Assembly (NCBI GenBank): GCA_964616855.1
Contig: CAZTUJ010000006.1
Location: 1-52,626, forward strand
Direction of reading: 5' to 3'
Length of the DNA stretch: 52,626 bases
DNA from: an uncultured Gammaproteobacteria bacterium
GTDB lineage: Bacteria; Patescibacteriota; Patescibacteriia; Patescibacteriales; UBA12465
The position numbers and the translations under genes were made by a program. Shown here piece by piece: positions 24,339 to 50,536 of this stretch (the stretch's first letter is position 1; each line of letters begins with the position of its first letter). The notes below the pieces were generated by a model. The model saw only the letters and a program-made list of their open reading frames with translations. It ran no database searches and had not been told where the DNA came from.

Positions 24339-24347
24339 ACTAATAAT

Positions 24348-24920: not shown

Positions 24921-24925
24921 TTTTT

Positions 24926-25546: not shown

Positions 25547-25550
25547 AAAT

Positions 25551-26340: not shown

Positions 26341-26724
26341 ATGGACAACAAATTAGACCCGAAAATCATCGCCGAAATCAAAAAGGAATTATTGGCCAAC
26401 AAAAAAGAGATTTTAGACAATCTTGAAGATATTTCTCACAAAGATCCGCATGAAGCGGATAATTTAGGTTCTAAATTTCCAGAATATGGCGATAAACCTG
26501 ATGAGAATGCCCAAGAAATTAGCGACTATACAGCTAATTCCGCCGCGGAAAAAGTTTTAGAAAAAACTTTAGCCGATATTGAAGGCGCCCTGAAACGGAT
26601 TGAAAATGGCACCTATGGCATCTGTAAATATTGCGGGCAAGTAATCGCTCCCAAGCGTCTCCAGGCCAGACCGGTAGCCAGCGCTTGTATTGCCTGCAAG
26701 ACGGAGCTGCAAGAAAATGAATAA
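26341..26724 (+). CDS. TraR/DksA C4-type zinc-finger protein
   Basis: ALKRIENGTYGICKYCG...RLQARP...CIAC. Confidence 0.92.
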   Translation: MDNKLDPKIIAEIKKELLANKKEILDNLEDISHKDPHEADNLGSKFPEYGDKPDENAQEISDYTANSAAEKVLEKTLADIEGALKRIENGTYGICKYCGQVIAPKRLQARPVASACIACKTELQENE

Positions 26725-27259
26725 ACTTTCAACTAATAATAAAGAATGGCAAAACATAGCTGGGCTGATAGTCATAGCTATGTTTTTTATAGGCGACCGC
26801 CTCTTAAAACAACTAGCGCTGGAACAAGGCTATGGGCAAAATACCGCTATCTTGGGCGATTGGTTGCAATTTCGCCTCGTGTTTAACCCCAATATCGCCT
26901 TTTCGCTACCCTTGAGCGGTAATTTCCTCTTATCAATAGCCACCCTGATGGTAATGGGCCTATTTTTTGGCATCATTTACCTAATAATAAATAAAAAGTA
27001 CAGAAATGGCCTAATCCTACCCTTGACATTTATTTTATTTGGTGCTATAAGTAATCTACTGGACCGTTACTTATACGGCGCTGTTGTCGACTATTTCGAC
27101 TTTCGTTACTTTACAATTCTCAACCTCGCCGACACCATGATTAGTATCGGCGTCATCATAATATTCATTCAAAATATCGCAAACTCCAAAACAAACAGAT
27201 ATGAACGCTCTGGTTACAACTCTCACGAACGAAGCGAAAAAAACACCACAAATTATTGA
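26717..27259 (+). CDS. lspA: Lipoprotein signal peptidase II
   Basis: NPNIAFS, GAISNLLDR, VVDYF, NLAD; ATG 26717 coupled to the upstream stop. Confidence 0.9.
   Translation: MNKLSTNNKEWQNIAGLIVIAMFFIGDRLLKQLALEQGYGQNTAILGDWLQFRLVFNPNIAFSLPLSGNFLLSIATLMVMGLFFGIIYLIINKKYRNGLILPLTFILFGAISNLLDRYLYGAVVDYFDFRYFTILNLADTMISIGVIIIFIQNIANSKTNRYERSGYNSHERSEKNTTNY
27023..27051 (+). promoter_or_regulatory. Near-consensus promoter inside lspA
   Basis: TTGACA-17 nt-TATAAG with TG extension. Confidence 0.5.
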
Positions 27260-27509
27260 ATCTGCCCAAGCGGTGGCTAATTGCTTGTTTAAAATAACGA
27301 GCGATATAATTTTCGCAAGAGAAAGCCCGGCCAGCGCCGACGATATGACACGGCTTATAAATGAAAGCCGAAACATTATCGCTCAGAGCGCCTTAGACCC
27401 GGAAGTAAAAAAACTTCTGGAAAAAAAGTCGGACATCGATCTTCAGCGGACGTTCCGCGATGTCTACCTCAGCTTTCTGAGAATGGACAAAGGCCCAACA
27501 AGGGTCTAA
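27201..27509 (+). CDS. Hypothetical protein
   Basis: 102-aa ORF overlapping the lspA end by 59 nt, followed by a terminator. Confidence 0.55.
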   Translation: MNALVTTLTNEAKKTPQIIESAQAVANCLFKITSDIIFARESPASADDMTRLINESRNIIAQSALDPEVKKLLEKKSDIDLQRTFRDVYLSFLRMDKGPTRV

Positions 27510-27528
27510 CAATGGATATTTCGAAACC

Positions 27529-27565
27529 AAAAGCCCCCGCAGTAAACTGCGAGGGCTTGTTTTTT
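27529..27565. terminator. Bidirectional terminator
   Basis: AAGCCC-CCGCAG-TAAA-CTGCG-AGGGCTT between convergent genes. Confidence 0.7.
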
Positions 27566-27575
27566 AATCTATAAT

Positions 27576-28367
27576 TTAATCATTTTTTTCAGTTTCCAGC
27601 GGTCGCCGAGAAGAAGATTGAATAGCGGTGAGATCGTCATAAATCTTCATTCCCCAAGCGGCAATATATTTACGCTCAGCGTAAGGATCACGTGGCACCT
27701 CTTGAAAATTAATGAAACCGCCGGCGGCATGGGGAAATTGATAATATTCGTGCTTAGCTAACGCTTCTTTTAATTGTGTCACGCTCATTCCTTTGCGCAC
27801 TGGGAATTTAGCTTCTTCTTGTAAACGTAAATCTTCAGGATAGTCACGGTTGAAACTGACATTAATCAAGCGGGCAGCAATTTTAATATCACTAATTAAT
27901 TTATTATGATAACGCTTGCGGCTAACTTCAGCTTCAATTTGTTTTTCCAAAAATTTGTCAGCATCAACCTCCTCAGTCTTCCGCATTTTCATCATATAAC
28001 TAATCCCGCTAAGGTAATTACTGACGTCATCTAAAACATTACTCAGCATACCTATAACAGCCGCTTTTCTCTCCTCTAAAACTTTAGTCTCCACCTCGTC
28101 AGTAGCAAATTCTGGTTTAAGACTAACGTTGCGGACTAAATCAACCGTCTCTTTAAAAGCCTTACCGGTCGGAGAGGTAATTTCTAATTTATTTTCACGA
28201 TTCTCAGGCTTAGGCACTTCTTCTCCATTTTTAATTTTTTCCTGTCGTTCCATTTCGTCCTCAGCCAGCATTTCTTCAATTTCTTTTTTTTCAGAAAAAC
28301 CGCCGCCGTAAAGATCGGGGTTTTTATACTGATCACGAAACATTTTTAAAGGGGATTCATAGTCCAT
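27576..28367 (-). CDS. Hypothetical protein
   Basis: 263-aa charged helical ORF directly downstream of tsaE. Confidence 0.65.
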   Translation of the reverse strand: MDYESPLKMFRDQYKNPDLYGGGFSEKKEIEEMLAEDEMERQEKIKNGEEVPKPENRENKLEITSPTGKAFKETVDLVRNVSLKPEFATDEVETKVLEERKAAVIGMLSNVLDDVSNYLSGISYMMKMRKTEEVDADKFLEKQIEAEVSRKRYHNKLISDIKIAARLINVSFNRDYPEDLRLQEEAKFPVRKGMSVTQLKEALAKHEYYQFPHAAGGFINFQEVPRDPYAERKYIAAWGMKIYDDLTAIQSSSRRPLETEKND

Positions 28368-28371
28368 ATAA

Positions 28372-28806
28372 TTAGATAATAATTATTTCTCTATCGGTAG
28401 CCGACAAGGCTTTTAAATAAATATGCATACACTCACTCTCTGCAAGTGTTTCTACCTTCTCCGCCCATTCCACCGCGCTCACCGTATCTACCGCGCCGAG
28501 ATAATCACCGGCGCCAATCTCTAATAGCTCTTTGCCTTGAGAAAGGCGATAGGCGTCGATATGGCACAAACGCTTAATCTGGCCCTTCTTAACCGGATAA
28601 AGCTTCATGATGGTAAAAGTAGGGCTGTTGACTGTCGCTTTAATGCCTAAGCCTGCAGCAATGCCCTGGACTAAGGCGGTCTTACCGGCTCCTAAATCAC
28701 CATACAAAGCTAAAATTTCGCCTCCACGCAAAGACTGGCCTAATTCCTGCCCTAAGGAAAAGGTCTCTTCGGGGCTATGACTGATATAGGTTTTTTTAGC
28801 AGACAT
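28372..28806 (-). CDS. tsaE: tRNA threonylcarbamoyladenosine biosynthesis ATPase
   Basis: GDLGAGKT, SPTF, HIDAYRL, VEWA. Confidence 0.95.
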   Translation of the reverse strand: MSAKKTYISHSPEETFSLGQELGQSLRGGEILALYGDLGAGKTALVQGIAAGLGIKATVNSPTFTIMKLYPVKKGQIKRLCHIDAYRLSQGKELLEIGAGDYLGAVDTVSAVEWAEKVETLAESECMHIYLKALSATDREIIII

Positions 28807-28850
28807 ATTAACATTCTAAAGGATAACGGCGGGAAAATAAAGAGCCTCTA

Positions 28851-28894
28851 TTGACAAGGAAATGACTTTGCGATATAATTAGATATATATCTAA
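28851..28894 (+). promoter_or_regulatory. Consensus promoter plus palindromic operator
   Basis: TTGACA-17 nt-TATAAT (28851-28879) overlapping perfect palindrome TTAGATATATATCTAA (28879-28894). Confidence 0.8.
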
Positions 28895-28904
28895 ATATCT
28901 AAAT

Positions 28905-29189
28905 ATGTTTTTCAATCGCTCTTTTGCCGCTTTAGCGGATCCCAACCGCCAAGCCATCCTCCAAACTTTAAAAAAAGGTGAGTGCCCCGTATCCACAATT
29001 GCGGCCACGCTCGATATTACCCTGGCCACCCTCTCCCATCATCTGGACATCTTAAAACGAGCCGACCTCATTAGTGCCCGGCGCTCCGGCCGCCAAATCT
29101 TCTACAGCTTGAATATGAGCGTCTTTGAAGAAATCAGTGAAGCTTTACTTAAATTTATCGGCCCGAAACAGCCGAAAAAAATAAAATAA
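28905..29189 (+). CDS. ArsR/SmtB family repressor, SdpR-like
   Basis: FAALADPNRQAIL...LSHHLDILK...GRQIFYSLN; adjacent to an SdpI-like gene. Confidence 0.9.
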   Translation: MFFNRSFAALADPNRQAILQTLKKGECPVSTIAATLDITLATLSHHLDILKRADLISARRSGRQIFYSLNMSVFEEISEALLKFIGPKQPKKIK

Positions 29190-29193
29190 AAAT

Positions 29194-29856
29194 ATGGAAA
29201 AAATTACACTCAAAACTGAGTATCGCGCCCTCTTAATTTTGCTCGCCACCATTGGCTTAAGCCTCTGGGCCTATCCTCAACTGCCTCTTCGCGTCGCCTC
29301 GCACTGGGGATTTAATGGTGAAGTCAATGGCTGGATGAGCCGCGACTTTCATTCCATCCTTTTCCCGGCGCTAATGATTGGCATGTATATTATGTTTCTG
29401 GCCGTGCCTTATTTTGATCCTAAAAAAGAACGCTACCTGGAGTTCGCTAAGGTATATCGCCTAATGCGCGATGCCATTCTTTTCATGCTCTTAGGCGTCT
29501 ATGCCACCGCTTCTTTCTATAATCTCAACTACAATATCAATGTCGGTATTATTGTGGCCACTCTTCTCGGTATTTTAATGATTGTTCTCGGCAACTACTT
29601 TGGTAAGCTGAAACGTAATTGGTTTATTGGCCTGCGCAGTCCTTGGGCTCTTTCTTCAGAGAATGTTTGGAACAAAACTCATCGTCTTGGTGGTCGCCTC
29701 TTTATGATTTGGGGAATACTAATAATTATTGCCCCTTGGTTAAACTTTCAAGCAGCTATGGCTATTCTCTTAGGCGGGATTGCCTTAATCATCATCAGCG
29801 TTAACGTCTATGCCTATCAGCTCTATCGCCAAGAGAAAAAACAGAAGATAAGTTAA
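29194..29856 (+). CDS. SdpI family (DUF1648) membrane immunity protein
   Basis: LPLRVASHWG, GNY, NWFIGLRSPW, WNKTHRLGG. Confidence 0.9.
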   Translation: MEKITLKTEYRALLILLATIGLSLWAYPQLPLRVASHWGFNGEVNGWMSRDFHSILFPALMIGMYIMFLAVPYFDPKKERYLEFAKVYRLMRDAILFMLLGVYATASFYNLNYNINVGIIVATLLGILMIVLGNYFGKLKRNWFIGLRSPWALSSENVWNKTHRLGGRLFMIWGILIIIAPWLNFQAAMAILLGGIALIIISVNVYAYQLYRQEKKQKIS

Positions 29857-29871
29857 ATAAATTGAAGCTTT

Positions 29872-29904
29872 AAAAAAACCCGTTCACACTTGAACGGGTT
29901 TTTT
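29872..29904. terminator. Bidirectional terminator
   Basis: AAAAAACCCGTTCA/TGAACGGGTTTTTT. Confidence 0.8.
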
Positions 29905-29911
29905 ATTAACC

Positions 29912-30175
29912 TTATTTTTGAGAATTCTGCCACAGACGCTTAAATAAAGGCAGAGTGAGGGTAGATAAAAGAAAACCAATGGTTGGTACCACAGCATTGA
30001 GATAGGCTTGTTCAATATTAATAGCTAAGAAATATAAGAAGATGGCAAGATAAGTAAAAAGCATTAAGAGAACGCGACGAGCCCAACTCCCCTCCCACTT
30101 CTTATCCAATTCTACCCGCTTATTTCTTTCTTCAATAACCTGTAAACGATGATTTATGTTTAAAATCTCATCCAT
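29912..30175 (-). CDS. Small membrane protein
   Basis: IEERNKRVELDKKWE followed by 2 TM. Confidence 0.7.
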   Translation of the reverse strand: MDEILNINHRLQVIEERNKRVELDKKWEGSWARRVLLMLFTYLAIFLYFLAINIEQAYLNAVVPTIGFLLSTLTLPLFKRLWQNSQK

Positions 30176-30181
30176 AAATAA

Positions 30182-30661
30182 CTAAATAATAATATTACTA
30201 TATTTTGAATAATCAATTGGATCCACAAAAATACCAAACCTAGAGCCTAATAACTTTGATTTATTGCCGAATAAATCATGTCCGGGGTCGATATCTCCTA
30301 CCGGAAATTGAAAAACTGTTTTTCGGCCGCTATTTTGATCAATAAAATAAGCTAAAACAACATATTTTTTCCCATCAGGAGAAAGATAAGATGCAACCCC
30401 GTCAATAGTAACTATTATTTTAACACTATTACTACGATTTAAACCTAAAAAATCCTCCAGTTTCATTCCGCTCTTTTCATATTCATAAAACCATGGCTTA
30501 CCCTTACCTAAGTCTAAATATTTAAAATCAGCAACAGAACTTTCCGCAACCGAATGTTTGGAAGTTAAAATATAAAAAAGCAAAACACCGGCAATGGCTA
30601 ATAAAAATAAAAATAAAAAAGCTAAATTTTCAAAATTAAGCGATTGATAAGAAAACAACAT
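30182..30661 (-). CDS. Hypothetical membrane-anchored protein
   Basis: N-terminal TM; ATG 30661 (ORF track starts at TTG 30670). Confidence 0.55.
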   Translation of the reverse strand: MLFSYQSLNFENLAFLFLFLLAIAGVLLFYILTSKHSVAESSVADFKYLDLGKGKPWFYEYEKSGMKLEDFLGLNRSNSVKIIVTIDGVASYLSPDGKKYVVLAYFIDQNSGRKTVFQFPVGDIDPGHDLFGNKSKLLGSRFGIFVDPIDYSKYSNIII

Positions 30662-30691
30662 AGACCTCAATAAATAATATTTATAAAAATT

Positions 30692-31192
30692 TTATTTTAC
30701 TACACAATGAGGCAAAGCTAAACAACCAGAATCACCACAACTTTGATATTCACAGATCAATGAAGGCTCACAAATAGCTTTATTAGCGGCGCGGCTACTA
30801 CAAACATCACTAATAGAGTATGGGGAGAAGGCTTGCAGATAAAGCTCTCTGCCGAATCTTACCATATAAGGAAGTGCACAAATCAACAAAACAGACGCGA
30901 GATAATAAATTGATATAATAAAACTCTTATCAGCACTTATATTAAAATATTTTCTAAAAAGGAAAAAACCAACCAACAAGCCAAGCAATGCAGGAATAAT
31001 AATTACTAAATAACCATCAGTATTAATTATCGCCAAGATAGATAATAAAATAATGGTCTTAATAACCACAGAAGAAAGTAAAGATTTTTTATAAGTAACC
31101 TCAAGTAAGCCCTTATTTTTAATAATGAATTTAAGAGTAAAAGCATCCACCAAGGAACAAATTAATAGGATAAATAATAAAATAAAAATCAT
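30692..31192 (-). CDS. Membrane protein with C-terminal six-Cys domain
   Basis: 4 TM then CSSRAANKAICEPSLICEYQSCGDSGCLALPHC. Confidence 0.65.
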   Translation of the reverse strand: MIFILLFILLICSLVDAFTLKFIIKNKGLLEVTYKKSLLSSVVIKTIILLSILAIINTDGYLVIIIPALLGLLVGFFLFRKYFNISADKSFIISIYYLASVLLICALPYMVRFGRELYLQAFSPYSISDVCSSRAANKAICEPSLICEYQSCGDSGCLALPHCVVK

Positions 31193-31210
31193 AATTTGTA
31201 TAATTAAATA

Positions 31211-31452
31211 TTATTGCTTAAATATTGAAACACATTCTTCCCTGGGCTCAACATCTGGGCAGGAAATCTCCCCATTATCAAAATGACTACATGGGTATGG
31301 AACTTCTATTTTTTTACAGTCCCAACGATCACAAGCATCTAAATCTGAGCAATTGGAATAATAATTATTCTGGTAAATATAAAATAGATAGAAAAAAGTT
31401 AGTAAAAAAATGCTATCACCACTGCAATTCTAAGAAATTTTTTACGAATCAT
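31211..31452 (-). pseudogene. Frameshifted gene for an 80-aa TM + six-Cys protein
   Basis: ATG at 31452; frame breaks in T7 tract (plus-strand A7, 31404-31410); one added T restores an ORF to TAA at 31211. Confidence 0.7.
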
Positions 31453-31501
31453 ATTAATTTTTAGAGTATACAAATATAGAAGCTGAGTTGGTAAAATTTC
31501 T

Positions 31502-31993
31502 TTATTTTTGAGACTTACCTTTGGATACAAACTGACTCTGGCTAAAAGATTTAAGCTTAGTATTTTCGTCTATAACTTCATTGCTTTGATCAAAAATATC
31601 ACATTCATGTTGCCAATCTTGGATAGAGTAAAGCTGATCTTGACCAAGATTAGATTCTGCAATAGCCTTAGAGATAGCGGCTCGATAATTAGCTTCTAAC
31701 TCAACAAAAATACCATCAACAAATATTTCAAGACTAAAGTTCGGAGCACCAACGACTTCCCGCTCACTCTCTAAAACTATTTTTATAAAATCACGAATGC
31801 GAAAATGGTCATTTGGATTATATTTAGAAACCGGGTCAAATTCGCCTATTGAGTTGATTTTCTTGGTAACATCCATCAATTTATTTGCCAATTCCTCGGC
31901 CAACAATCGGCGAATATCAAACTCAGTTATAACTTTTTCTGTCCCTGGCCGTTCAACGACTTTAAATTGATAAATTTCACTCATATTATTCAT
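31502..31993 (-). CDS. Hypothetical protein
   Basis: 163-aa ORF; TGATATAAT on the minus strand at 32011-32019. Confidence 0.6.
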   Translation of the reverse strand: MNNMSEIYQFKVVERPGTEKVITEFDIRRLLAEELANKLMDVTKKINSIGEFDPVSKYNPNDHFRIRDFIKIVLESEREVVGAPNFSLEIFVDGIFVELEANYRAAISKAIAESNLGQDQLYSIQDWQHECDIFDQSNEVIDENTKLKSFSQSQFVSKGKSQK

Positions 31994-32109
31994 ATTATAA
32001 ATATATTTATATTATATCATATCTATAAGTCGGGATAAACTAAGCAAAATGATTGTTAAAAAAAATAAATAAAACCTTGAATAACAACTCCTAGACTAGC
32101 CAAAAATAT

Positions 32110-32135
32110 AAAAAACACCCCGTTGGGTGTTTTTT
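32110..32135 (-). terminator. Terminator after tRNA-Val
   Basis: AAAAAACACCC/GGGTGTTTTTT. Confidence 0.75.
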
Positions 32136-32139
32136 AATG

Positions 32140-32213
32140 TGGGCGCACAAGGATTCGAACCCTGGACCCCTTCGGTGTAAACGAAGTGCTCTAACCAGCT
32201 GAGCTATGCGCCC
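32140..32213 (-). tRNA. tRNA-Val(TAC)
   Basis: GGGCGCA acceptor, anticodon arm CTTCG-TTTACAC-CGAAG, GGTTCGAATCC; no CCA. Confidence 0.95.
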
Positions 32214-32223
32214 TCATAAGGGG

Positions 32224-32307
32224 TGGGCGAAAGAGGATTTGAACCTCCACGGCCTTGCGGCCACAAGCCCCTCAAGCTTGCGTGTCTACCAATTTCACCA
32301 TCCGCCC
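32224..32307 (-). tRNA. tRNA-Leu(GAG)
   Basis: Anticodon arm CAAGC-TTGAGGG-GCTTG, variable arm GGCCGCAAGGCC, GGTTCAAATCC. Confidence 0.93.
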
Positions 32308-32362
32308 TTCGATAAAGGGGCAACAACGCCCCTTTATATAAATCGATTGTAAATAATATTAA

Positions 32363-32722
32363 TTAACGTACAACTTTCTCCGTCAATTTCTTCTTATAAC
32401 CTCTCTTTAGGAAATAAAGCTTAGCGCGACGTACTTCCGCGATCTTCTTCACTTCAATCTTGGTGATGGTCGGTAAATTCAAAGGGAAAATTTTCTCCAC
32501 GCCAACACCGTCAGAAACTTTTCGGACCGTGATGGTGCCGCCTTTTTCCTTGTTATGTTTGCGGGCGATAATCATGCCTTCAAAATATTGAATGCGTTCT
32601 TTTTCTTCACCTTTAGAATTTAATTCTTTAATTTTCTGATGAACACGGACAGTCATCCCTGGTTTTAACTCCAGCTCGACAGTCTTCTGTTCCTCTTTAG
32701 ATTCAGTTTTTTTCTCGGACAT
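32363..32722 (-). CDS. rplS: 50S ribosomal protein L19
   Basis: PGMTVRVH...ERIQYFEG...VRK...GVGVEKIFP...VRRAKLYFL. Confidence 0.97.
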
Positions 32723-36941: not shown

Positions 36942-38312
36942 ATGTCTAAGAAAATTATCGCTCTCGCCTTAATTGGCGTCTTTATTCTCAGCTCCGGTTT
37001 TGGCTGCAAAACAGTAGATAAAAAAACTCAGGAAGCCATGCAGCCCATTACTCTAACATACTGGCGCGTCTTTGATGGTCCCGATGCTTTTCAAGAAATA
37101 ATCGGTAAGTACAACGCTATCCATTCTAACGTCACTATCAACTACCGCAAGCTGCGCTATGAAGAATATGAAACTGAGTTGTTAAACGCCTTAGCCGAGG
37201 ACCGAGGCCCAGATATTTTATCCATTCACAACACGTGGTTACGTAAATATCAAAATAAATTAGTACCCATGCCCGCCAGTATTACTATGGCCTATCCGGT
37301 GGAGAAGGGCACAATCCAAAAAGAAATTGTTCCGGAACTACGCACCATCAAAAGTCCGACCCTCAGAGAACTAAAAGATAAATTTGTGGACGTTGTCTAC
37401 AGTGATGTGGTTTTAGATGATAGTCAGGTTTACGGACTACCTTTATCAGTTGACACTTTAGCTCTATACTACAACCGCGATCTCCTTAATAACGCCGGTA
37501 TCACTGATGCCCCCCGCTATTGGAATAAAGAGTTTCAACAAAACGTCAAAAAATTAACCAAGCAAGATCCGGTCACCGGTATCGTCCAATCTGGCATCGC
37601 TTTAGGCGGAAGCAGTAACATTGAAAGATACAGCGACATTCTGGCCGTGCTAATGCTCCAAAATGGCGCCGTCATGATGGATGGTAAACAAGTATTATTT
37701 AATACCATTCCCGCTGCCACTAAAGATAGAAAATATAACCCTGGTCTTGAAGCTTTACGTTTCTATATTGATTTTTCCAACCCCGGTAAGGAAGTTTATT
37801 CTTGGAATGAAACACTGCCTAATTCTTTAGAACTCTTTGCTAACGGCAAATTAGCCCTGATGTTTGGTTATTCTTACCATCTAGCTACTATTAAGGCCCA
37901 GTCACCAAAATTAAACTTTTCCGTCAGCCCTCTACCCCAGATTGAAGGTAGCCAGTATGAAGTCAATTTTGCTAACTACTGGGTAGAGACGGTCTCGAAA
38001 AAAAGTAAATATCCAAACGAGGCCTGGGATTTCATTATTTTTGCCACTAAAGAAGAACAGGTGCAATCATATCTTACTAAAACTAAGCGACCAACGGCCT
38101 TACGCGCCTTAGTAAAAACTCAAAGTGAAGACAATGAAATTGGCATCTTTGCCTCACAACTACTGACCGCCAAGAGCTGGTATCGTGGTAAAGATGTGAC
38201 TTCGGCAGAAACAGCTATCGGTGAAATGATTAACAATGCCCGCCAAAATACCGAAAGGATTTTAGAAGTTATCAATACCGGCGCCGCGAAAGTGCAGCAA
38301 ACGGTAAATTAA
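36942..38312 (+). CDS. Extracellular solute-binding lipoprotein (sugar ABC family 1-like)
   Basis: Lipobox-like GFGC; GPDI, YGLPLSVDTLALYYNRDLL, FANGKLALMFG, AWDFI. Confidence 0.88.
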   Translation: MSKKIIALALIGVFILSSGFGCKTVDKKTQEAMQPITLTYWRVFDGPDAFQEIIGKYNAIHSNVTINYRKLRYEEYETELLNALAEDRGPDILSIHNTWLRKYQNKLVPMPASITMAYPVEKGTIQKEIVPELRTIKSPTLRELKDKFVDVVYSDVVLDDSQVYGLPLSVDTLALYYNRDLLNNAGITDAPRYWNKEFQQNVKKLTKQDPVTGIVQSGIALGGSSNIERYSDILAVLMLQNGAVMMDGKQVLFNTIPAATKDRKYNPGLEALRFYIDFSNPGKEVYSWNETLPNSLELFANGKLALMFGYSYHLATIKAQSPKLNFSVSPLPQIEGSQYEVNFANYWVETVSKKSKYPNEAWDFIIFATKEEQVQSYLTKTKRPTALRALVKTQSEDNEIGIFASQLLTAKSWYRGKDVTSAETAIGEMINNARQNTERILEVINTGAAKVQQTVN

Positions 38313-38316
38313 ATTT

Positions 38317-38736
38317 ATGCTTAAAAAATTAATCATCAGCGTCGCCGTCGTCTTCAGCTTATTTTTCGTTATAGCCCCTAATTTGGTGGCAGCCGAATCA
38401 ATTGTTGATAACACCTCGGTAAAATACGACAAGGGAAACTACAATCTCAATGACATGGTCCTAGTGGCTGTCGGCGCCTCGCGCTGGATTTTAGGAATTG
38501 TGGGCTCTCTCGCTTTATTAATGTTTATCTACGGTGGTCTGATGTTTTTAATCTCAGCTGGTAGCAGTGATCGCGTTAGTAAGGCTAAACTAATTCTCAT
38601 CGCCGCTGTAGCCGGGCTAGCCATTGTCTTTGCTAGCTATCTCATTATTAAATTTGTTCTCGGCACTATGGGAATTAACTGGGACGGCAGTAATGCGGAA
38701 GTAGTTTTACAAAGCAGTACCGCAAAGTTCTTATAA
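38317..38736 (+). CDS. TrbC/VirB2-like pilin
   Basis: Signal peptide; YGGLMFLISAGSSDRVSKAK...GLAIVFASY. Confidence 0.8.
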   Translation: MLKKLIISVAVVFSLFFVIAPNLVAAESIVDNTSVKYDKGNYNLNDMVLVAVGASRWILGIVGSLALLMFIYGGLMFLISAGSSDRVSKAKLILIAAVAGLAIVFASYLIIKFVLGTMGINWDGSNAEVVLQSSTAKFL

Positions 38737-40386: not shown

Positions 40387-41760
40387 CTAAGAACGGAGGC
40401 GCCACACCGTAATGGGACCTTCAAAGAAAATAGCGTCATAATTTTCTTTAATAAATCTATCAACCGGATTATCTTGATTGTGCCGAAAGCGCTCTAAAGA
40501 ATTAGGGTAGGCAGTTACAGCACAACCTGGGGTTTCCGCCTCCAGTTGCGCGCGTGCCTGATTAAATTGCACCTCCGTCTGATGGCCAGTAATTAAGATA
40601 TCAAAAGAAGTAGCGCTCAGCTTACCAGTCTCTAAATAAACATTGGGGAAAAAGGGGCCGGCATGCAAAGATTTATCTGGGCATTCCTGCCTAATTACCT
40701 CTAAGAACGGGTATTCTTTATCGTTATAATTATTAAAAATTAAAAGATAAAAAAACATACTTACCGGAAAAAGCCAAATCCAAGCTAAACCAGGGATGGC
40801 TAAATATGATAGGAACTTAGGCTGGTGCTCAGCACTAAAGATAAGGGGCAACAAGGGAAGCATTAAACTTAAAGCAAGATTTAAATGATAGTAATCAGGT
40901 AAAGGATAACAAGAAAGTAAAAAACCAGCACTTAACAAAAGCACAAAATTGATAGAGCGGGAGCGTCTCCGCCAAGAGATGGTAATTAACCCTAGTGAAA
41001 AAAAAGCTAAATACAACAAGAGATAAGAAATACGATTTGATTCAATATAATGAAATAAAGGAAAAGAAATTAAATTCTCCCATAAGAGCGCTGGTGGCCA
41101 AAATAAAAATAAGACGGCTAAAGGCAGGGCGGTTGCCAAACTATAAAGTAAAAAGGAATGAAGACGCTCCCGCAGTGATCGGTCGGCAAAGGGCCAGAGC
41201 AAAAATAAAGCACTGACGCCAGCCACCACCAAACCCTTCTGCTGGAGCAAAAGAATGCTTAAGCCCATCGTCAAACCGGCAAAAAATAACCATAAATAAC
41301 GCCGTGAATGCAAATAACCCAGATAAAAATACAGGGACCAGATAATAAAGACGAGATTATAAAAATTATGATTAATAATCCAGAGCCAAGAAGAACTAAG
41401 AACAAAAAAGAAGGGGACAAATAAATTAAAGGGCGATGGCTTCAGTTTCTCAGCTGCTTTATAAAGGCCAAGGGCTCCCAACATTAATAAAAAAATGGAA
41501 AAAATCTTAGCGGACCAGAAACTGGCGCCGACCAGCTGCCAAAGCCAATATAAAAGATAAAAGCTCAGGGGCGGCAAGAAGGAAAAAAAATCAAAATAAA
41601 GGCGGCGGCCATTATAAAGATTCCAAGCTCCGTTTAAAGTTACGCCTTCATCACCATTTAAAAGATGATTAAAATGAAAAAATACGGCTAAGGCGATTAA
41701 AAAAAGCGAATATAAAAATAGCCAAATTTTCCGATGCTTTAAATTACTGGACTCTTTCAT
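40387..41760 (-). CDS. GT-C (ArnT/PMT-like) membrane glycosyltransferase
   Basis: DEG motif after TM1, LYFDFF...PP, about 11 TM, soluble C-terminal domain. Confidence 0.7.
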   Translation of the reverse strand: MKESSNLKHRKIWLFLYSLFLIALAVFFHFNHLLNGDEGVTLNGAWNLYNGRRLYFDFFSFLPPLSFYLLYWLWQLVGASFWSAKIFSIFLLMLGALGLYKAAEKLKPSPFNLFVPFFFVLSSSWLWIINHNFYNLVFIIWSLYFYLGYLHSRRYLWLFFAGLTMGLSILLLQQKGLVVAGVSALFLLWPFADRSLRERLHSFLLYSLATALPLAVLFLFWPPALLWENLISFPLFHYIESNRISYLLLYLAFFSLGLITISWRRRSRSINFVLLLSAGFLLSCYPLPDYYHLNLALSLMLPLLPLIFSAEHQPKFLSYLAIPGLAWIWLFPVSMFFYLLIFNNYNDKEYPFLEVIRQECPDKSLHAGPFFPNVYLETGKLSATSFDILITGHQTEVQFNQARAQLEAETPGCAVTAYPNSLERFRHNQDNPVDRFIKENYDAIFFEGPITVWRLRS

Positions 41761-43342
41761 AAATGATGCTTAAATTATCACTAAAAACTACTCGCCAATC
41801 AGGGGATTGGCTTAAATAAGAGTATAAAGGATTATCCACAGTCAACTCCTGTTCCGTTACTTGAAAAAATAATTTTTCACTTTCCCGCAAACTTAGGGGT
41901 GGACGAATTTGTTTAATTAAAACCAAACGAATATCATAATCAGAAAGCAAAAAAGTAAAATCGCTATCAGGACTTCTAAAAGCTAAATATTCTTCTAAAA
42001 TCGTCCGACCACGATATGGGGCCTGAGGCATCCGTCCATCAATAAATAGCTCTTTTTCGGGATAAGCAAAAAGCAGAAAACCACCCCAGTTATATTCATT
42101 AAATAAGCGCCAAGAGCTTGTCTCGGGACGAGATTGTAAATAAGAGACAGCGGCACAAGGATATTTTTTCCCACAAAAATCTCTGATACCATCCTGCTGC
42201 CAAGGCAAAGAAAAACTCGACCAAAGAGCGTAAGCACCAATAATTAATAAACTAGCAACACCCAGGCGAAGGAGCCAAATTTTTTTAAAAGGCCAAGAAA
42301 AATTATTAATAAATTCCTGGACTACCGCCGACATCAGAGGTAAAGAAGCGATTACAAAAATGGGGAAATGCCGACGGGACCGGAAAGCCATAATAAAAAA
42401 TAAAATAGCTAAAGCCCAATCCCAAAGAGAAAAACTAAGGCGCTTGCCAAAACTCCATAAATATAGAAAAAAAGCAGCGGCCAAAGCAAGGTAATATAAT
42501 TGGGGATAATATAGAGGCAGAATAAACTGACTTTGCCACTCATGGATATAAGTCATGTAGAGAGTGTTGGAGTAAGAGCCTAGAAAAGAATATAGGCCCA
42601 AACCATAGGGATTAACCAGGGTCGCTAGCAAAGAAAAAATAAAAATTAAGCCTAAAAATAAACAGTCTTTTTTAGAAAAAGCGGAAATTGCAAATTTTCT
42701 AAAAATAGGCCAATTTTTTATCAACCCCGCCAAACAAGCATAAAGACAATAGGCAAATAATAAAGACAGGCCCAACAAAAAACTGCCATGCAGATTGGCC
42801 CACAGCATGAATATTAAAGGCAGGCTTAAAAACCAGAGGCGATAACGAGAAAAATGGGAGAACAAAAAAAATAAAATAGAAAGAAACAGCAAGCCAATTT
42901 CCTGGACTCTTAAGCCAAGATGGGGGCGGCTAGCAAATAAACCTAAGGCCAAACAAGCAAAAATACCAATCAACAAAGCCGGATCACTCTTAAAAAAAAG
43001 ACTAAAATTAAAAATGCGGCGCCAAACAAAAAAAATGGTTACTGCCATAATAAATAAGAAAAAGAGATGGAGGCCCAAAAACGAAGTCTGACTGAAAATC
43101 AAAGCCAATCCGTAGTTTAACAGCCATTCATGATCAACCCAGCCCTGACCTGATAAAGTATAATTATAATGATCGGTAGTCGGGGCCTGCCCAGTCGCCG
43201 CAATCTCGGCTCCCACCCGTAAATGCCAGCCTAAATCGCTATCCGAATAAGAAAAAGAATTTCGCAATAAAAAAATGGCCAAAACAAAAAACAAAACCCA
43301 GGGCAAGAGAACTATTGACAATTTATAAATTTTATTAGTCAT
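41744..43342 (-). CDS. GT-C-like polytopic membrane protein
   Basis: DSDLGWHLRVG, WVDHEWL, WANLHG, NPYG, EW, R, YNWGG...FIDGR. Confidence 0.7.
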   Translation of the reverse strand: MTNKIYKLSIVLLPWVLFFVLAIFLLRNSFSYSDSDLGWHLRVGAEIAATGQAPTTDHYNYTLSGQGWVDHEWLLNYGLALIFSQTSFLGLHLFFLFIMAVTIFFVWRRIFNFSLFFKSDPALLIGIFACLALGLFASRPHLGLRVQEIGLLFLSILFFLFSHFSRYRLWFLSLPLIFMLWANLHGSFLLGLSLLFAYCLYACLAGLIKNWPIFRKFAISAFSKKDCLFLGLIFIFSLLATLVNPYGLGLYSFLGSYSNTLYMTYIHEWQSQFILPLYYPQLYYLALAAAFFLYLWSFGKRLSFSLWDWALAILFFIMAFRSRRHFPIFVIASLPLMSAVVQEFINNFSWPFKKIWLLRLGVASLLIIGAYALWSSFSLPWQQDGIRDFCGKKYPCAAVSYLQSRPETSSWRLFNEYNWGGFLLFAYPEKELFIDGRMPQAPYRGRTILEEYLAFRSPDSDFTFLLSDYDIRLVLIKQIRPPLSLRESEKLFFQVTEQELTVDNPLYSYLSQSPDWRVVFSDNLSIIYERVQ

Positions 43343-43443
43343 AAGAATATTTTAACATATCCCCAATTGTTTGTCTTCCGTGCTATATTATGGTAAAATA
43401 GAAACATCATTTAAATTATCAACAACTAGAAAGGTGGTGAATT

Positions 43444-43827
43444 ATGAGTAAAAAAATAGTAAAAAATTTATTAGCCTTAGCGATGTTATCCTTCCTCGCA
43501 TTGCCTTTAGTGACCTTTGCACAGGGTAATATGGATGTGGGTCTGAATGAAATCGAAAATGGCTTTGCTGACAATGGTCTCGGTAATACTGATCCGAGAA
43601 CAACTGTTGCGAGATTAATTAACGTCGCTATGCTCTTCTTGGGTATTATCGCGGTTGTTATCGTCTTGCTTGGCGGTTTCAAATGGATGACCGCAGCTGG
43701 TAACGAGGACAAGGTAGGCGAAGCGAAGAAATTAATGGGCGCTGGTGTCGTCGGTTTAGTAATCGTGCTGTCTGCTTGGGGTGTTGCCAACTTCATCTTA
43801 AGCAAGTTGATCACAGCCACCAACTAG
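43444..43827 (+). CDS. TrbC/VirB2-like pilin 1 (candidate major subunit)
   Basis: Signal peptide (TFA-Q); GGFKWMTAAGNEDKVGEAK; AAAGGTGGTGA upstream. Confidence 0.85.
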   Translation: MSKKIVKNLLALAMLSFLALPLVTFAQGNMDVGLNEIENGFADNGLGNTDPRTTVARLINVAMLFLGIIAVVIVLLGGFKWMTAAGNEDKVGEAKKLMGAGVVGLVIVLSAWGVANFILSKLITATN

Positions 43828-43843
43828 TAATTTCTAGAATCGA

Positions 43844-43923
43844 TTTTGGAAAAGAGTGGTCCTTGCCTAGCAGGGGCCACCGCCCTGGATATCAGTTTTG
43901 CTGGTTTCCAGAGCGGTGCCAAA
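43844..43923 (+). other. GC-rich structured intergenic element
   Basis: Hairpins 43856-43880 and 43880-43916; possible closing stem TTTGG/CCAAA; no U tract. Confidence 0.55.
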
Positions 43924-43944
43924 CCAAGACAAAAAAATAACTCT

Positions 43945-44337
43945 ATGCTTTGCTCAAAATTCGTCAGAAGCGTATCTCTCTTTATTATAACCAGCTTTTT
44001 AATGGCCGGTTTTTTTAGTGCTTTCCCCGTATTAGCCGAAGACTACGGCCTTAATACAAGCGCGGGCCAAGTCACTGCCTATCAAGATCAAATAAGTAAT
44101 CCAGACGACAACTTTTTAAGCACTAAACTAGGCACCATTATCGGCATCGTACTCTCCTTTGTCGGTGTAATCTTCCTAATCTTAATGATTTTTGCCGGCT
44201 TAACCTGGATGACGGCTCAAGGCAATCAAGAAAAGGTGGGAAAAGCTAAAGATTTAATGATTAACGCTATTATCGGCTTAATTATTGTAATGGCCGCCTA
44301 CGCCATCACCGCTTTTGTCGGCGATCGCCTTATTTAA
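43945..44337 (+). CDS. TrbC/VirB2-like pilin 2
   Basis: ATG 43945; AGLTWMTAQGNQEKVGKAK...IIGLIIVMAAYAI. Confidence 0.85.
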   Translation: MLCSKFVRSVSLFIITSFLMAGFFSAFPVLAEDYGLNTSAGQVTAYQDQISNPDDNFLSTKLGTIIGIVLSFVGVIFLILMIFAGLTWMTAQGNQEKVGKAKDLMINAIIGLIIVMAAYAITAFVGDRLI

Positions 44338-44343
44338 TAAGTT

Positions 44344-44748
44344 ATGTTTAATTTTCAGACTCGCCTTTTATTTCTCATGCTCACTATCTTTGGCAGTATT
44401 TTAATGGTAAGCAGCGTTAGTGCTCAAGGTTCTTATAATTTTGCCAGTTCCAGCGGTCTGACTCACACCAGCCAGCAAGCGGGCTATGATATTAGCGACC
44501 AAAGCCAGACGCCAGAAGCCTATATCTCTAGAATAATTGAGATTATTCTTTCAATCTTAGGGGTTATTTTTCTAGGACTAACCATCTATGGCGGTATTGT
44601 TTGGATGACCGCCCAGGGTAATGAAGAGAAAGTTAGTAAAGCTAAAGAATTAATAACTGAAGCTATTATCGGCTTAATTATCGTTATTGCCGCCTACGCC
44701 ATCACTTACTTTGTTTTAAAACTTACCAGCGGCTCCTTACTCCAGTAA
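44344..44748 (+). CDS. TrbC/VirB2-like pilin 3
   Basis: GGIVWMTAQGNEEKVSKAK...IIGLIIVIAAYAI. Confidence 0.85.
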   Translation: MFNFQTRLLFLMLTIFGSILMVSSVSAQGSYNFASSSGLTHTSQQAGYDISDQSQTPEAYISRIIEIILSILGVIFLGLTIYGGIVWMTAQGNEEKVSKAKELITEAIIGLIIVIAAYAITYFVLKLTSGSLLQ

Positions 44749-44752
44749 CATC

Positions 44753-45154
44753 ATGAAAAAAGTAATTAAAATTTATTTTAGTCTTTTTACCATCAGTCTT
44801 TTTTTATTACCATTAGCCATCAATGCTCAAAATGAGAAACCAAATCTAAAGGACGCCTTTGGTAAAGCTACTGACAGTCCCTTGCAAACAGTGGCGGGAT
44901 CACAAGGAGCTGGTTATCTTGCTAGTGTCGGAATCGAGACTTTAGCTGGACAGGTAATTACCGCCCTTACTTCATTGTTAGGGGTAATTTTTGTCCTTCT
45001 AACCATTTATGGCGGCTTTCTCTATATGAACGCCCGCGGCAATGAAGAACAGACCAAAAAAGCCAAAGCTATTATTACTCAGGCCTTAATCGGCTTAGTA
45101 ATTATCTTGGCCGCTTACGCCATTTCTTACTTTATTCTCAAATTTTTAATCTAA
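44753..45154 (+). CDS. TrbC/VirB2-like pilin 4
   Basis: GGFLYMNARGNEEQTKKAK...LIGLVIILAAYAI. Confidence 0.85.
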   Translation: MKKVIKIYFSLFTISLFLLPLAINAQNEKPNLKDAFGKATDSPLQTVAGSQGAGYLASVGIETLAGQVITALTSLLGVIFVLLTIYGGFLYMNARGNEEQTKKAKAIITQALIGLVIILAAYAISYFILKFLI

Positions 45155-45164
45155 ACACCCTCGT

Positions 45165-45593
45165 ATGAAGCCAAAGAACATCAAGCCAATTATCACCTTA
45201 TTACTATTAACGGCCATCATGGTCCTGCCCTATCTAGTGTTTGCCCAGGGAACTAATACCATTAAGCCCGAATCAAGTGCTAATCCCCTCACCATGCTGA
45301 GAAACATTGCCGCTGGTGAAGCTGGCCCCTATGATGATGCCACTGATCAAGACTCCCTCCCCATTATTCTCGGCTTTGTAATTAACGGCGCTCTTAGTCT
45401 ACTCGGTGTTATTTTTATCATCCTAATGGTCTTAGCCGGCTATAACTGGATGACGGCCTCTGGTAATGAACAGAGAATTGACGAGGCTAAGGATACCATT
45501 AAACGCGCCATTATTGGCTTAGTCATTACTCTTGGCTCTTGGGCAATTTGGAATTTCTTGGTCGCCAATCTAATTAATAAACTTTCAGCTTAA
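45165..45593 (+). CDS. TrbC/VirB2-like pilin 5
   Basis: AGYNWMTASGNEQRIDEAK...IIGLVITLGSWAI. Confidence 0.85.
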   Translation: MKPKNIKPIITLLLLTAIMVLPYLVFAQGTNTIKPESSANPLTMLRNIAAGEAGPYDDATDQDSLPIILGFVINGALSLLGVIFIILMVLAGYNWMTASGNEQRIDEAKDTIKRAIIGLVITLGSWAIWNFLVANLINKLSA

Positions 45594-45596
45594 TAT

Positions 45597-46052
45597 ATGA
45601 ACACTCTTAAAAAGATATTATTCAGTGTTCTCGTCTCTTGCTTATTAGCTATTCCAACTCTATCGGCTCAGGCCACCACCAGCAGCAGCACGCTTAATAA
45701 CACTATTACTGGGCCTGCCGATATTATGCTGGCTAATAGTGGTTTAAGTAGCTTCTCTTTAGGCTCAGTTATCGCTTTTGTTATCCAGGCTGCTCTTAGT
45801 CTTCTCGGCATCATCTTCTTAGTTATTATCGTCTTCGCTGGCTACCGCTGGATGACTGCTGCTGGCAATGAAGAGGCTATTAAAAAATCACAGGAAGCCA
45901 TCAAACGGGCGATTATCGGTCTCATTATTGTCCTTATGGCCTACGCCATCACTTATTTCGTCTTTAAACAACTACCTTTTACTGGTGGTACAGGCGGGAG
46001 CAATAATAACCAGGGCGGAGGAGCGCTGCCGCCGGTAGGAAATGAGCTTTAA
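45597..46052 (+). CDS. TrbC/VirB2-like pilin 6
   Basis: AGYRWMTAAGNEEAIKKS...IIGLIIVLMAYAI; Gly/Asn tail. Confidence 0.85.
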   Translation: MNTLKKILFSVLVSCLLAIPTLSAQATTSSSTLNNTITGPADIMLANSGLSSFSLGSVIAFVIQAALSLLGIIFLVIIVFAGYRWMTAAGNEEAIKKSQEAIKRAIIGLIIVLMAYAITYFVFKQLPFTGGTGGSNNNQGGGALPPVGNEL

Positions 46053-46067: not shown

Positions 46068-46104
46068 AAAAAGGGACCGGTCATAATTAGATCGGTCCCT
46101 TTTT
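46068..46104. terminator. Bidirectional terminator
   Basis: AAAAAGGGACCGGTC/GATCGGTCCCTTTTT. Confidence 0.8.
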
Positions 46105-46125: not shown

Positions 46126-46986
46126 CTATTGGCGAGGTTTGTAAACATCCGTACTCTGCCAAGAACACCAATGGAGGGTTTCGCCGTAATAATCTACGGT
46201 TTCAACGCCAACTTTAAAGGTGTATGAACCTTTAGGGATACTTCCCCAAGCATATACCTGGCAGGTATATTCGCCTGGTAATAAATACCAACTGGCACTA
46301 CCTTGTGGTCCCACAACGAAAGATTTTGTTTCTGTTCCTTTAATGATAAAGGTATACTCGGTGCTTCTTGATTTATTAAACACCTTTCCAAAATATCCAT
46401 TAACGGGGTTGGCAATAATAGGTGCCGCCTGAAGTTTGTCGAGAGCCATTTGTTTGGCCTCAATTTGGATTTCCTGTCTTTCCACCACATTTGAGTTGGT
46501 GCGTAGTCTAGTCTCTTTGTTGGTTAACTCCTGAGGGAGCGTTTGAATGATTGCCTCGGAAATGGAGACATCCATGATAGCGTTGCGATCAGCTTCCAGT
46601 TTTTGGATTCTTTTGCTGAGAGCATCGCGCTTAGGTGTTAGACCAGCTACAAGCTGATTTTGGCTACTAGCCTCTACTTTCATGTCGGCTAACCTTCTTT
46701 GGACGCTAGTCCTTTGTTTATTCCAAGCATCCATTGTTGGTAAAGAGGCATTGCCCTGTGCTATCAGGGAGTCCAAACGGACGCGCTCATTGTGCCACAT
46801 AGTGGAATCCGGAATAATAGACTCACGAGCAATTTGCCCGTTTAAGGAAGCAAGCTGTCCCCGTAGCTGCGAGATTTCTCTTTCGATTTTCTGGGCAGCC
46901 TTTAGCTGTTGTTTCGTTTGGGCGTTAGCGCCGATTGTTACTGCCATAAAAATGGCGAAAATTACGAAAAAAATCTGTGTTTTCAT
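46126..46986 (-). CDS. Secreted coiled-coil protein with C-terminal beta-sandwich
   Basis: Signal peptide (ANA-Q), long coiled coil, LLPGEYT motif; promoter TTGACA-17-TATACT at 47095-47067. Confidence 0.65.
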   Translation of the reverse strand: MKTQIFFVIFAIFMAVTIGANAQTKQQLKAAQKIEREISQLRGQLASLNGQIARESIIPDSTMWHNERVRLDSLIAQGNASLPTMDAWNKQRTSVQRRLADMKVEASSQNQLVAGLTPKRDALSKRIQKLEADRNAIMDVSISEAIIQTLPQELTNKETRLRTNSNVVERQEIQIEAKQMALDKLQAAPIIANPVNGYFGKVFNKSRSTEYTFIIKGTETKSFVVGPQGSASWYLLPGEYTCQVYAWGSIPKGSYTFKVGVETVDYYGETLHWCSWQSTDVYKPRQ

Positions 46987-47146: not shown

Positions 47147-47225
47147 GGTAGGTCGCAAAAATCCCTGCTTGTCATTCCATTAATACTGTAGGGATTTTTT
47201 GTTTGAGCAAATAAACCACGCTAAT

Positions 47226-47852
47226 ATGAAAAAAATCAAAATCAGCGAGGACCTTGTGCCTCTTAGTAGTCGGCAGCGTATGGTCTTAAGTTTGATCATC
47301 GCTTGCATCTTTCAATTTGTCTTTTTTTTCACTCCCGTCCTCGCCGCCGAAGCAGTCGCTCAGGATCAAGGTGCTATTAAAATGGGGCCTACTAGCAAAA
47401 GTCAGGCCGATCCTGTGGTAGCTGTCTTAATCGAGCAGGCTCAAGCCAAGACAGAGACTAGCGCTTTAAAAGCAAGCTCCACTCTGGCAACTGTGGCCGA
47501 AGAAACACCTGCAAGCGAGACCACTCCGCAAGTAAAGGTGGTGCGTACCAGCACCCATACCATGACAGCCTATAATTCTGATCCCGCCCAAACCGATAGC
47601 ACTCCCTGTATTACTGCCAATGGTTTTGATGTCTGTGCTCATGGTGAAGAAGATACTATTGCTGCCAACTTCCTTAAATTCGGCACTAAAGTCAGAATTC
47701 CGGAACTATACGGCGACCGCATTTTCGTGGTTCGCGACCGGATGAACAAACGCTACAGTGACCGTGTTGATATCTGGATGAAAGAAAAAACTGATGCCCG
47801 TAAATTCGGTGTCAAAGTGGCCAAGATTGAAGTCGTTGAGGTAATTGAATAA
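47226..47852 (+). CDS. 3D-domain (MltA-like) cell-wall protein
   Basis: TAYNS...QTD...TANG, IAAN, FGTKV, VRDRM, VDIWM. Confidence 0.85.
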   Translation: MKKIKISEDLVPLSSRQRMVLSLIIACIFQFVFFFTPVLAAEAVAQDQGAIKMGPTSKSQADPVVAVLIEQAQAKTETSALKASSTLATVAEETPASETTPQVKVVRTSTHTMTAYNSDPAQTDSTPCITANGFDVCAHGEEDTIAANFLKFGTKVRIPELYGDRIFVVRDRMNKRYSDRVDIWMKEKTDARKFGVKVAKIEVVEVIE

Positions 47853-50437: not shown

Positions 50438-50519
50438 GCGGGCGTGGCGGAATTGGTAGACGCACTTGGTTTAGGACCAAGCGGGGAAACTCTTGAGAGT
50501 TCGAGTCTCTCCGCCCGCA
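50438..50519 (+). tRNA. tRNA-Leu(TAG)
   Basis: GCGGGCG/CGCCCGC acceptor, CTTGG-TTTAGGA-CCAAG, GTTCGAGTC. Confidence 0.95.
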
Positions 50520-50536
50520 CTTTCATTTTTTCAGGC

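Follow-up and report, generated by a model that had tools for sequence, protein, structure and literature searches.

The stretch of DNA analysed here, called the window, is 52,626 nucleotides (nt) long and corresponds to the entire contig CAZTUJ010000006.1 (C6) of assembly GCA_964616855.1, a 952-kb genome (G000) in 7 contigs, with a completeness score of 100%, from an uncultured bacterium of the Patescibacteriota. Positions 43444-46052 are occupied by a tandem array of six adjoining open reading frames (ORFs) on the + strand, which encode small pilins of the type found in type IV secretion systems (T4SS) and are numbered here pilin 1 to pilin 6. A divergent paralogue, pilin 0, lies upstream and an intrinsic terminator closes the array. 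The features are given below, with lengths in amino acids (aa) and, unless another family is named, bit scores against the Pfam family PF18895 (T4SS_pilin; gathering threshold 26.6 bits).

43444-43827, + strand: pilin 1, 127 aa, 40.7 bits; likely major subunit
43945-44337, + strand: pilin 2, 130 aa counted from an ATG, 35.0 bits; positional orthologues in 7/7 genomes
44344-44748, + strand: pilin 3, 134 aa, 41.9 bits; positional orthologues
44753-45154, + strand: pilin 4, 133 aa, 41.3 bits; positional orthologues
45165-45593, + strand: pilin 5, 142 aa, 36.4 bits, with a sub-threshold match of 19.4 bits to TrbC (PF04956); positional orthologues
45597-46052, + strand: pilin 6, 151 aa, C-terminal tail rich in Gly and Asn, 35.7 bits; orthologue group with a support of 99/77
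46068-46104, + strand: intrinsic terminator ending the array, a 15-bp stem followed by a U run, z-score -5.03
38317-38736, + strand: pilin 0, a divergent pilin-like paralogue of 139 aa directly after a solute-binding protein gene, 23.9 bits, just below the threshold

The array had been pointed out in an earlier note, made from the letters of the window alone, which described six adjacent genes, each coding for a signal peptide, a polar segment and a hydrophobic hairpin, and took their products for T4SS-type (VirB2-like) pilins. The description is confirmed by the ORF list, the alignment and the PF18895 search, and the assignment by the scores of 35.0-41.9 bits with which 6/6 array proteins pass the threshold of the family. 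The seventh paralogue that the note had placed at 38317 is likewise present. All six array proteins also match the NCBIfam model NF045849, which describes pilin-like proteins of mycoplasma integrated conjugative elements (ICEs), at 32.4-38.9 bits, under its cut-off of 40. A database search with pilin 1 recovered 1,495 relatives at E <=0.001 among 2,239 candidates; among the matches listed (the best 120) all carry PF18895, several are named 'pilin [Patescibacteria group bacterium]' and some come from Falkowbacteria.

Each array protein begins with a hydrophobic segment that ends at a small-x-small site (mostly A|Q, as judged by eye) and continues with a polar segment of 23-37 residues and two long hydrophobic helices. 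Pairwise identity among the six aligned proteins is 27-45%, with a mean of 44% (34-58%) for the hairpins and 13% (4-26%) for the polar segments. The loop carries the motif G-x2-[WY]-M-[TN]-A-x-G-N-[EQ]-x5-AK; this was already recognised in the earlier note, which gave four residues to the spacer where there are five and extended to the whole array a motif that holds in 5 of the 6 genes, pilin 6 having SQ in place of AK. A type IV pilin identity was considered and rejected because, in agreement with the note, no class III prepilin motif (G|F-x3-E) lies ahead of the hydrophobic stretch in any of the seven proteins; the sole match to a G-x4-E regular expression, in pilin 1, is located downstream of the signal-peptide core. 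From pilin 1 to pilin 6 the intergenic gaps measure 117, 6, 4, 10 and 3 nt. A longer ORF for pilin 2 exists (43846-44337, 163 aa from a TTG), but its TTG is part of a conserved RNA hairpin, and the alignment of the orthologues begins at the ATG at 43945, the most likely start.

Gene order and orthology of the array

Members of the PF18895 family are found in 31/31 related genomes of the genus, family and order, with 7-16 matches per genome. Synteny and orthology were compared in seven genomes belonging to three genera (G000, G004, G006, G007, G010, G016 and G017), and in 7/7 of them the tandem pilins are exactly six and keep the same order. In the six relatives of G000, the upstream order consists of genes for SMC, the solute-binding protein, pilin 0, a helix-turn-helix protein, a methyltransferase and a 127-aa membrane protein, followed by the six pilins, and the downstream order consists of a fast-evolving secreted protein encoded on the opposite strand, a 217-aa protein and an 802-aa enzyme.

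The phylogeny of the pilins follows their position. In a maximum-likelihood tree of 48 pilins, grouping by position takes 6 changes, which is the minimum possible, and 0/200 shuffles gave a number as low. Support is 100/100 for positions 0 and 1, and positions 3 and 5 each do not form a single branch. The six genes are ancient, separately kept positional orthologues common to three genera and not recent copies. This positional orthology argues against a recent amplification of the array and against a simple interchange of its members as variants. Hairpin identity within the genus is 66-86% and that of the variable segments 31-53%, to be read beside the 92-93% of VirB4 and the 84-91% of the neighbouring 802-aa enzyme, which served as yardsticks. 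Even the variable segments retain in the alignment motifs that are specific to each position and shared between species. No sign of recent duplication was seen among the array genes, in a comparison that left gene conversion aside, and no shift in GC content was seen across the array. The nearest tRNA genes are located several genes away, at 32139-32307 and 50438-50520. Because synteny with housekeeping genes is kept in seven genomes and the three relaxase families searched gave no match, the array is chromosomal and not mobile, as the note had supposed.

Pilin 1 and the three-hairpin RNA

Among the six positions, pilin 1 is the most conserved. Within the genus its hairpin is 86% and its variable segment 53% identical, and its branches are the shortest of the tree. 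Two further features flank its coding sequence:

43371-43399, + strand: promoter-like site upstream of pilin 1; extended -10 element (TG-n-TAAAAT); 9/12 matches with the TG in a consensus scan
43831-43918, + strand: RNA of three hairpins, adjoining the pilin 1 stop codon and upstream of pilin 2 (H1, 43831-43852; H2, 43859-43877; H3, 43878-43918)

The whole 5′ leader of pilin 1, including the extended -10 element and a Shine-Dalgarno sequence, is conserved in 7/7 genomes, and pilin 1 is the only gene of the array preceded by a Shine-Dalgarno sequence. Such sequences are rare in this genome, where the 5-mer core precedes 12/583 long ORFs (2%) compared with 6% of random 17-mers, in a survey that took the first start codon of each ORF and whose figures may be blurred for that reason. 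The 4-mer core is also rarer than chance upstream of long ORFs (8% vs 19% in random 17-mers). The organism seems to be largely without initiation led by Shine-Dalgarno sequences.

The RNA element that follows pilin 1 has a predicted minimum free energy of -46.5 kcal/mol (z-score -5.05). In the seven genomes its structure comprises 35 base pairs, 17 of which show compensatory changes, and 93.4% of the alignment cells are paired compared with 40-54% in slid controls, a value that 0/500 shuffles reached. A covariance model (R1) built from this seven-genome alignment matched 48/121 sampled genomes of the order (27/70 genera and 13/26 families), usually once per genome. Of the 19 loci inspected, 16 belong to genomes not used to build the model and span 7 families. 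In 19/19 the match is on the pilin strand, immediately behind a pilin-1-type gene and ahead of the next pilin. When 23 matches were aligned, double changes were present in 31/35 pairs, the alignment being fitted to the model and including two antisense rows. In at least one genome, G061, gene and RNA are duplicated as a unit, since both of two pilin-1-like genes in a row have a copy of the RNA behind them. Paired R1 matches about 500 nt apart were seen in G079 and G047.

When H1 was searched for across the genome, allowing up to 4 mismatches, it was found only at 43831-43853. A search of Rfam with E values up to 1 gave no family for the element and returned only a chance microRNA match and a sub-threshold, terminator-like Thr_leader match, which corresponds to the terminator after pilin 6. 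No U run follows H3, and thus the element is not a standard terminator. Intercistronic stem-loops set the ratio of major to minor subunits in fimbrial and other operons, such as the pap pilus operon. The element described here is similar to them in being a stable structured RNA that directly follows the major subunit gene at the head of an operon with several subunits, and it differs in having three hairpins, a near-invariant first hairpin, no U run and no Rfam family. No published intergenic stem-loop of Patescibacteria pilin genes was found in a keyword search of the literature, and the three-hairpin RNA appears to be the one element of the locus that is undescribed.

Information on expression came from contigs assembled from four freshwater metatranscriptome runs (X1-X4) of a single study. 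Contigs with 100% identity span pilin 1 in 4/4 runs, from 43417-43450 to 43838-43859, with a word depth of 3.2-26.2; they cover the gene whole in X2 and X3, without its first 6 bases in X1, and in two pieces separated by a 19-base gap in X4. Pilins 2, 3, 5 and 6 are represented by contigs of 151-245 nt at a depth of 2-3. None lies over pilin 4 or over 43860-43969, where H2, H3 and the pilin 2 start are located, missing cover being no evidence in such libraries. The contigs hint only weakly at an abundant message of pilin 1 alone, with an end close to the first hairpin. Because of its own promoter-like site, its rare Shine-Dalgarno sequence, its slow evolution, the slowest of the array, and the RNA element after its stop codon, pilin 1 is likely the major subunit. 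These hints fit the earlier suggestion of a major subunit accompanied by several minor ones, as conservation, tree branches, leader, Shine-Dalgarno sequence and RNA contigs all single out pilin 1.

Pilin 1 has closer relatives outside the array than inside it. Two giant secreted proteins are encoded on contig C5 (locus L020), one of 891 aa (24001-26676; Big_5 domains) and another of 1,954 aa (26770-32634; TIG/IPT, Big_5 and weak fn3 domains). Over 126 residues, pilin 1 and the N-terminus of the larger protein share 52% identity, and over 109 residues the N-terminus of the smaller one shares 51%, compared with 27-34% between pilin 1 and its own array neighbours. Open frames of ~890 and ~1,950 aa with a pilin module recur in the relatives. 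A third giant, of 1,012 aa and with no Pfam match, follows these two on C5. Separately, two proteins of 454 and 321 aa encoded on contig C1 (67474-70674; locus L022) contain a T4SS_pilin module (21.5 and 29.5 bits, respectively) and flank a thiamine pyrophosphate enzyme gene beside oxidoreductase subunit genes. The larger of the two has its module mid-protein, at residues 204-263.

The T4SS core and the role of the pilins

The absence of a T4SS near the array, stated in the earlier note, holds for the window, in which VirB4, VirD4 and relaxases (three families searched) gave no profile match. It does not hold for the genome, and the implied picture of a stand-alone system is not supported. A PrgI-TrsD-VirB4 core is encoded at C1:111012-114040, on a contig separate from the array. 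The VirB4 ATPase, which the note had proposed to look for elsewhere, is a 631-aa protein (C1:112145-114040) that matches PF19044 (P-loop_TraG) with 100.5 bits and is named a CD1110-family VirB4-like ATPase by NCBIfam NF045971 (357 bits, cut-off 325). Directly upstream of virB4, PrgI/VirB3 is encoded (30.9 bits against a cut-off of 27) and, between the two, a 227-aa protein with a TrsD-like match of 31.2 bits and a match to the N-terminal part of VirB4, both sub-threshold; the VirB4 N-domain PF03135 has no match across the genome. Two VirD4/TraG-type coupling-protein-like ATPases are encoded far from virB4, at C1:478196-480760 and C5:52408-53436, one with a long N-terminal membrane region and the other cut by the contig end. 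Relaxases of the families PF03432, PF01076 and PF03389 gave 0 matches genome-wide, in a search that did not extend to MOBC, MOBF, MOBH, MOBT and other classes. Just past the VirB4 cluster, at C1:114654-119110, genes resemble radA and recG by eye, an arrangement which is that of the T4SS loci in class ABY1 (PMC12102498).

Arrays of this type have recently been catalogued. A survey counted 1,948 Patescibacteria assemblies with VirB2-like pilins, which lie near virB4 in 1,135 of these assemblies, and 441 arrays of 2-11 genes in 383 assemblies; identity averages 25% and reaches 54% at most (Quinonero-Coronel et al., 2025; PMC12102498). The array analysed here is a member of this published class and no new kind of system. 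It shares with those arrays the PF18895 family, the tandem arrangement, the low mutual identity (27-45% here) and the chromosomal location, together with a VirB4/TrsD/PrgI core in the genome and no relaxase found among the three families searched. The novelty that the earlier note had seen in the function has to be given up, as the same reading and the analogy with Bartonella and Anaplasma are already in that survey; in the text available from it, nothing was found on positional orthology, a special pilin 1, the RNA element or giant fusions with a pilin-1-type module. A further point of comparison is Southlakia epibionticum ML1, in which the pilin series of the T4SS cluster is essential (Wang et al., 2023; PMC10633639), a need for such pilins in epibiotic growth being known from Southlakia only. 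The Southlakia cluster is reported to contain six divergent VirB2-like pilins (2025 review, PMC12857230). That array resembles the present one in its six tandem genes and differs in lying inside the T4SS cluster, whereas here it is on another contig and, in relatives, 172-708 kb away from virB4. The function of the Patescibacteria T4SS, essential in one species tested, has been called 'completely unknown' (PMC11665869).

With moderate confidence, the six genes are interpreted as coding for VirB2-like subunits of a chromosomal, non-conjugative T4SS whose core is encoded elsewhere in the genome, and which would build a surface fibre that depends on VirB4 and has pilin 1 for its major subunit. 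Each pilin would be exported by Sec and its signal peptide cut, mostly before Gln. By analogy with the topology of VirB2 and TraA, the two-helix hairpin would then reside in the membrane, its two ends exposed on the outside and its short charged loop on the cytoplasmic side. The VirB4 machine would extract the subunits into a pilus-like or short surface fibre, with the variable N-terminal segments facing outward. In such a fibre pilin 1 would be the major subunit and pilins 2-6 five old, non-redundant minor subunits, produced from one operon read to one terminator. The three-hairpin RNA would most likely stabilise or end a separate pilin 1 message and in this way determine how much pilin 1 there is relative to pilins 2-6. 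The two giant proteins, in which a pilin-1-type module is combined with immunoglobulin (Ig)-like domains, could join the structure as adhesins for host contact. The more specific proposal that the unit of pilin 1 plus RNA sets the subunit ratios of a heteromeric T4SS fibre, and that the pilin 1 module also recruits the giant Ig-domain adhesins, is put forward only tentatively. If true, it would provide a new class of cis-acting RNA and the first concrete design for the unseen T4SS pilus of monoderm Patescibacteria, with a single major subunit, a fixed set of five minor ones and fused adhesins.

Compared with the classical pilins VirB2, TrbC and TraA of the T-pilus and F-pilus, the array proteins have in common the signal peptide, the two-helix hydrophobic hairpin with its short charged loop and, presumably, the dependence on a VirB4-type machine. 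They differ in their monoderm host, in their multiple divergent copies and in the location of their genes away from the machine, as well as in the lack of a TrbC profile match above threshold, of a sequence match to solved pilins and of a discriminating fold match. A structure of pilin 1 was modelled with AlphaFold2 from an alignment of 42 sequences, giving helices at residues 3-27, 51-83 and 88-126, with a predicted local distance difference test score of 87-92 over the hairpin (residues 51-126).

Several results count against a VirB4-dependent fibre with pilin 1 as its major subunit, or give it no support. In structural comparisons of this model, which were uninformative for or against a VirB2 fold, the best Foldseek match in the Protein Data Bank had an E value of 1.1, with the Agrobacterium T-pilus entry 8fai in 26th place (E 4.2), and the top matches of VIA-align were generic hairpins with Z of 9-10 (<=10.1), under the noise level of the tool for helical models. 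A profile search of the sequences in the same database recovered no solved pilin, its one match being irrelevant (E 0.13). Since a two-helix shape fits countless helical hairpins, the relationship with VirB2 rests on the Pfam family and not on the fold. Even within Pfam, only one of the two profiles suggested in the earlier note recognised the array, because TrbC/VirB2 (PF04956, threshold 27.9 bits) remained unmatched at best scores of 19.4 bits for pilin 5 and 14.2 bits for pilin 2. As for TrbL/VirB6, the other component that the note had proposed to look for, the only match, of 15.8 bits, falls in a protein of 874 aa without a name in either Pfam or NCBIfam. In relatives the array and virB4 are ~172 kb apart on one contig (G006) or ~708 kb apart along the contig (G017), and because both share a contig in these two genomes, the separation is real and not an assembly artefact. 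The array being far from virB4, the functional link between them is one of family only. The missing Shine-Dalgarno sequence before pilins 2-6 is no sign of low translation, because its absence is the norm in this genome. In the metatranscriptomes, contigs can neither rank genes nor show transcript ends, and DNA was possibly present in the libraries. Lastly, no filament of a Patescibacterial T4SS has been seen, and reviews mention only a 'potential' pilus (PMC12857230).

The most serious alternative is that the hairpins never leave the cell membrane, where they would act as anchors or as parts of a T4SS channel or envelope scaffold with no extended pilus, the giants being hairpin-anchored surface proteins. 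Although considered rather unlikely, this explanation would account for the plain hydrophobic hairpin that the fold amounts to, and for the resemblance of the pilin module in the giants and in the two mid-sized C1 proteins to an anchor for large outer domains. It also agrees with the statement that MPF-FATA (Gram-positive-type) systems, the relatives of the Patescibacterial VirB4, are normally pilus-free (PMC12102498). On the other hand, six conserved small paralogues and a highly conserved, specially expressed first gene exceed what anchoring needs, and the family profile places the array proteins among T4SS pilins.

A different view, proposed in PMC12102498, would see the six genes as interchangeable variants that switch or broaden the host range in the manner of Bartonella Trw or Anaplasma, whose T4SSs contain tandemly amplified pilin genes, as cited in the same source. 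The present array shares with these systems several pilin genes in a row and variable surface-exposed parts; its outward-facing N-terminal segments differ strongly between paralogues (13% identity) and evolve faster than the hairpins (31-53% vs 66-86% within the genus). The view is nevertheless improbable here, and the expansion of that style suggested in the earlier note gives way to six stable orthologue groups. Every position is maintained in three genera, 7/7 genomes keep the six genes in order, the genes share one operon and one terminator, no recent duplication was seen and the position-specific motifs are kept between species. Thus, where Bartonella and Anaplasma have lineage-specific amplifications, the array has ancient position-specific orthologues, and, given how members of the phylum live, its partner is presumably another bacterium acting as host rather than an animal cell. 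The last explanation, that the array is cargo of an ICE, was rejected and is very improbable. It could draw on the family that the array has in common with the pilin-like proteins of mycoplasma ICEs (NF045849, below cut-off), and it is contradicted by the array and its housekeeping flanks, conserved in 7/7 genomes of 3 genera, by the absence of a GC shift and of relaxases of the three families in a genome with a completeness score of 100%, and by the distance of several genes to the nearest tRNA genes. In this respect the judgement of the note, which had taken the array to lie outside such an element, stands.

With respect to the favoured reading of a heteromeric surface fibre, the locus supplies a candidate major subunit that can be labelled or sought in proteomes. 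The five fixed minor subunits argue against simple antigenic variation, and the candidate adhesins share the module of the major subunit. Across an order of uncultured bacteria, the conserved RNA element offers a marker by which the major pilin gene can be recognised.

Neighbouring genes

The region upstream of the array contains a solute-binding protein gene (SBP_bac_1, 108.9 bits) that is followed after 4 nt by pilin 0, the pair occupying 36942-38736 on the + strand. The pair is kept in 6/6 genomes having the region, and the pilin 0 orthologue group has a support of 100/100. No ABC permease or ATPase gene was visible beside the solute-binding protein gene in the ORF list, which was inspected without a profile search.

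Between the gene of the 127-aa membrane protein and the array, two large polytopic membrane proteins are encoded on the - strand (40387-43342), one of them PMT_2/GT-C-like (26.8 bits) and the other without family. The earlier note had counted this pair as part of the system. As obligatory partners, GT-C glycosyltransferases that glycosylate the Ser/Thr-rich pilin segments were rejected, the genes being absent from the locus in G010 and G007. Both are present in G000, G004 and G017 and one in G006 and G016; because the locus lacks both in two genomes and one in two others, the GT-C genes are not part of the system.

Downstream of the array, a 286-aa secreted, coiled-coil-like protein without family is encoded on the - strand (46126-46986). 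Its position after the array is kept in all relatives. Its sequence is ~26-30% identical over full-length matches and 45% identical over 42 residues in G004, with no match in G016. Two genes past it, the 802-aa gene is 72-91% identical in relatives. The conserved neighbour that precedes this gene, at 47199-47852 on the + strand, encodes a 217-aa secreted protein with a weak match of 26.6 bits to the C-terminal part of EntA, a cell wall-binding protein, and it may, speculatively, be a helper in wall remodelling.

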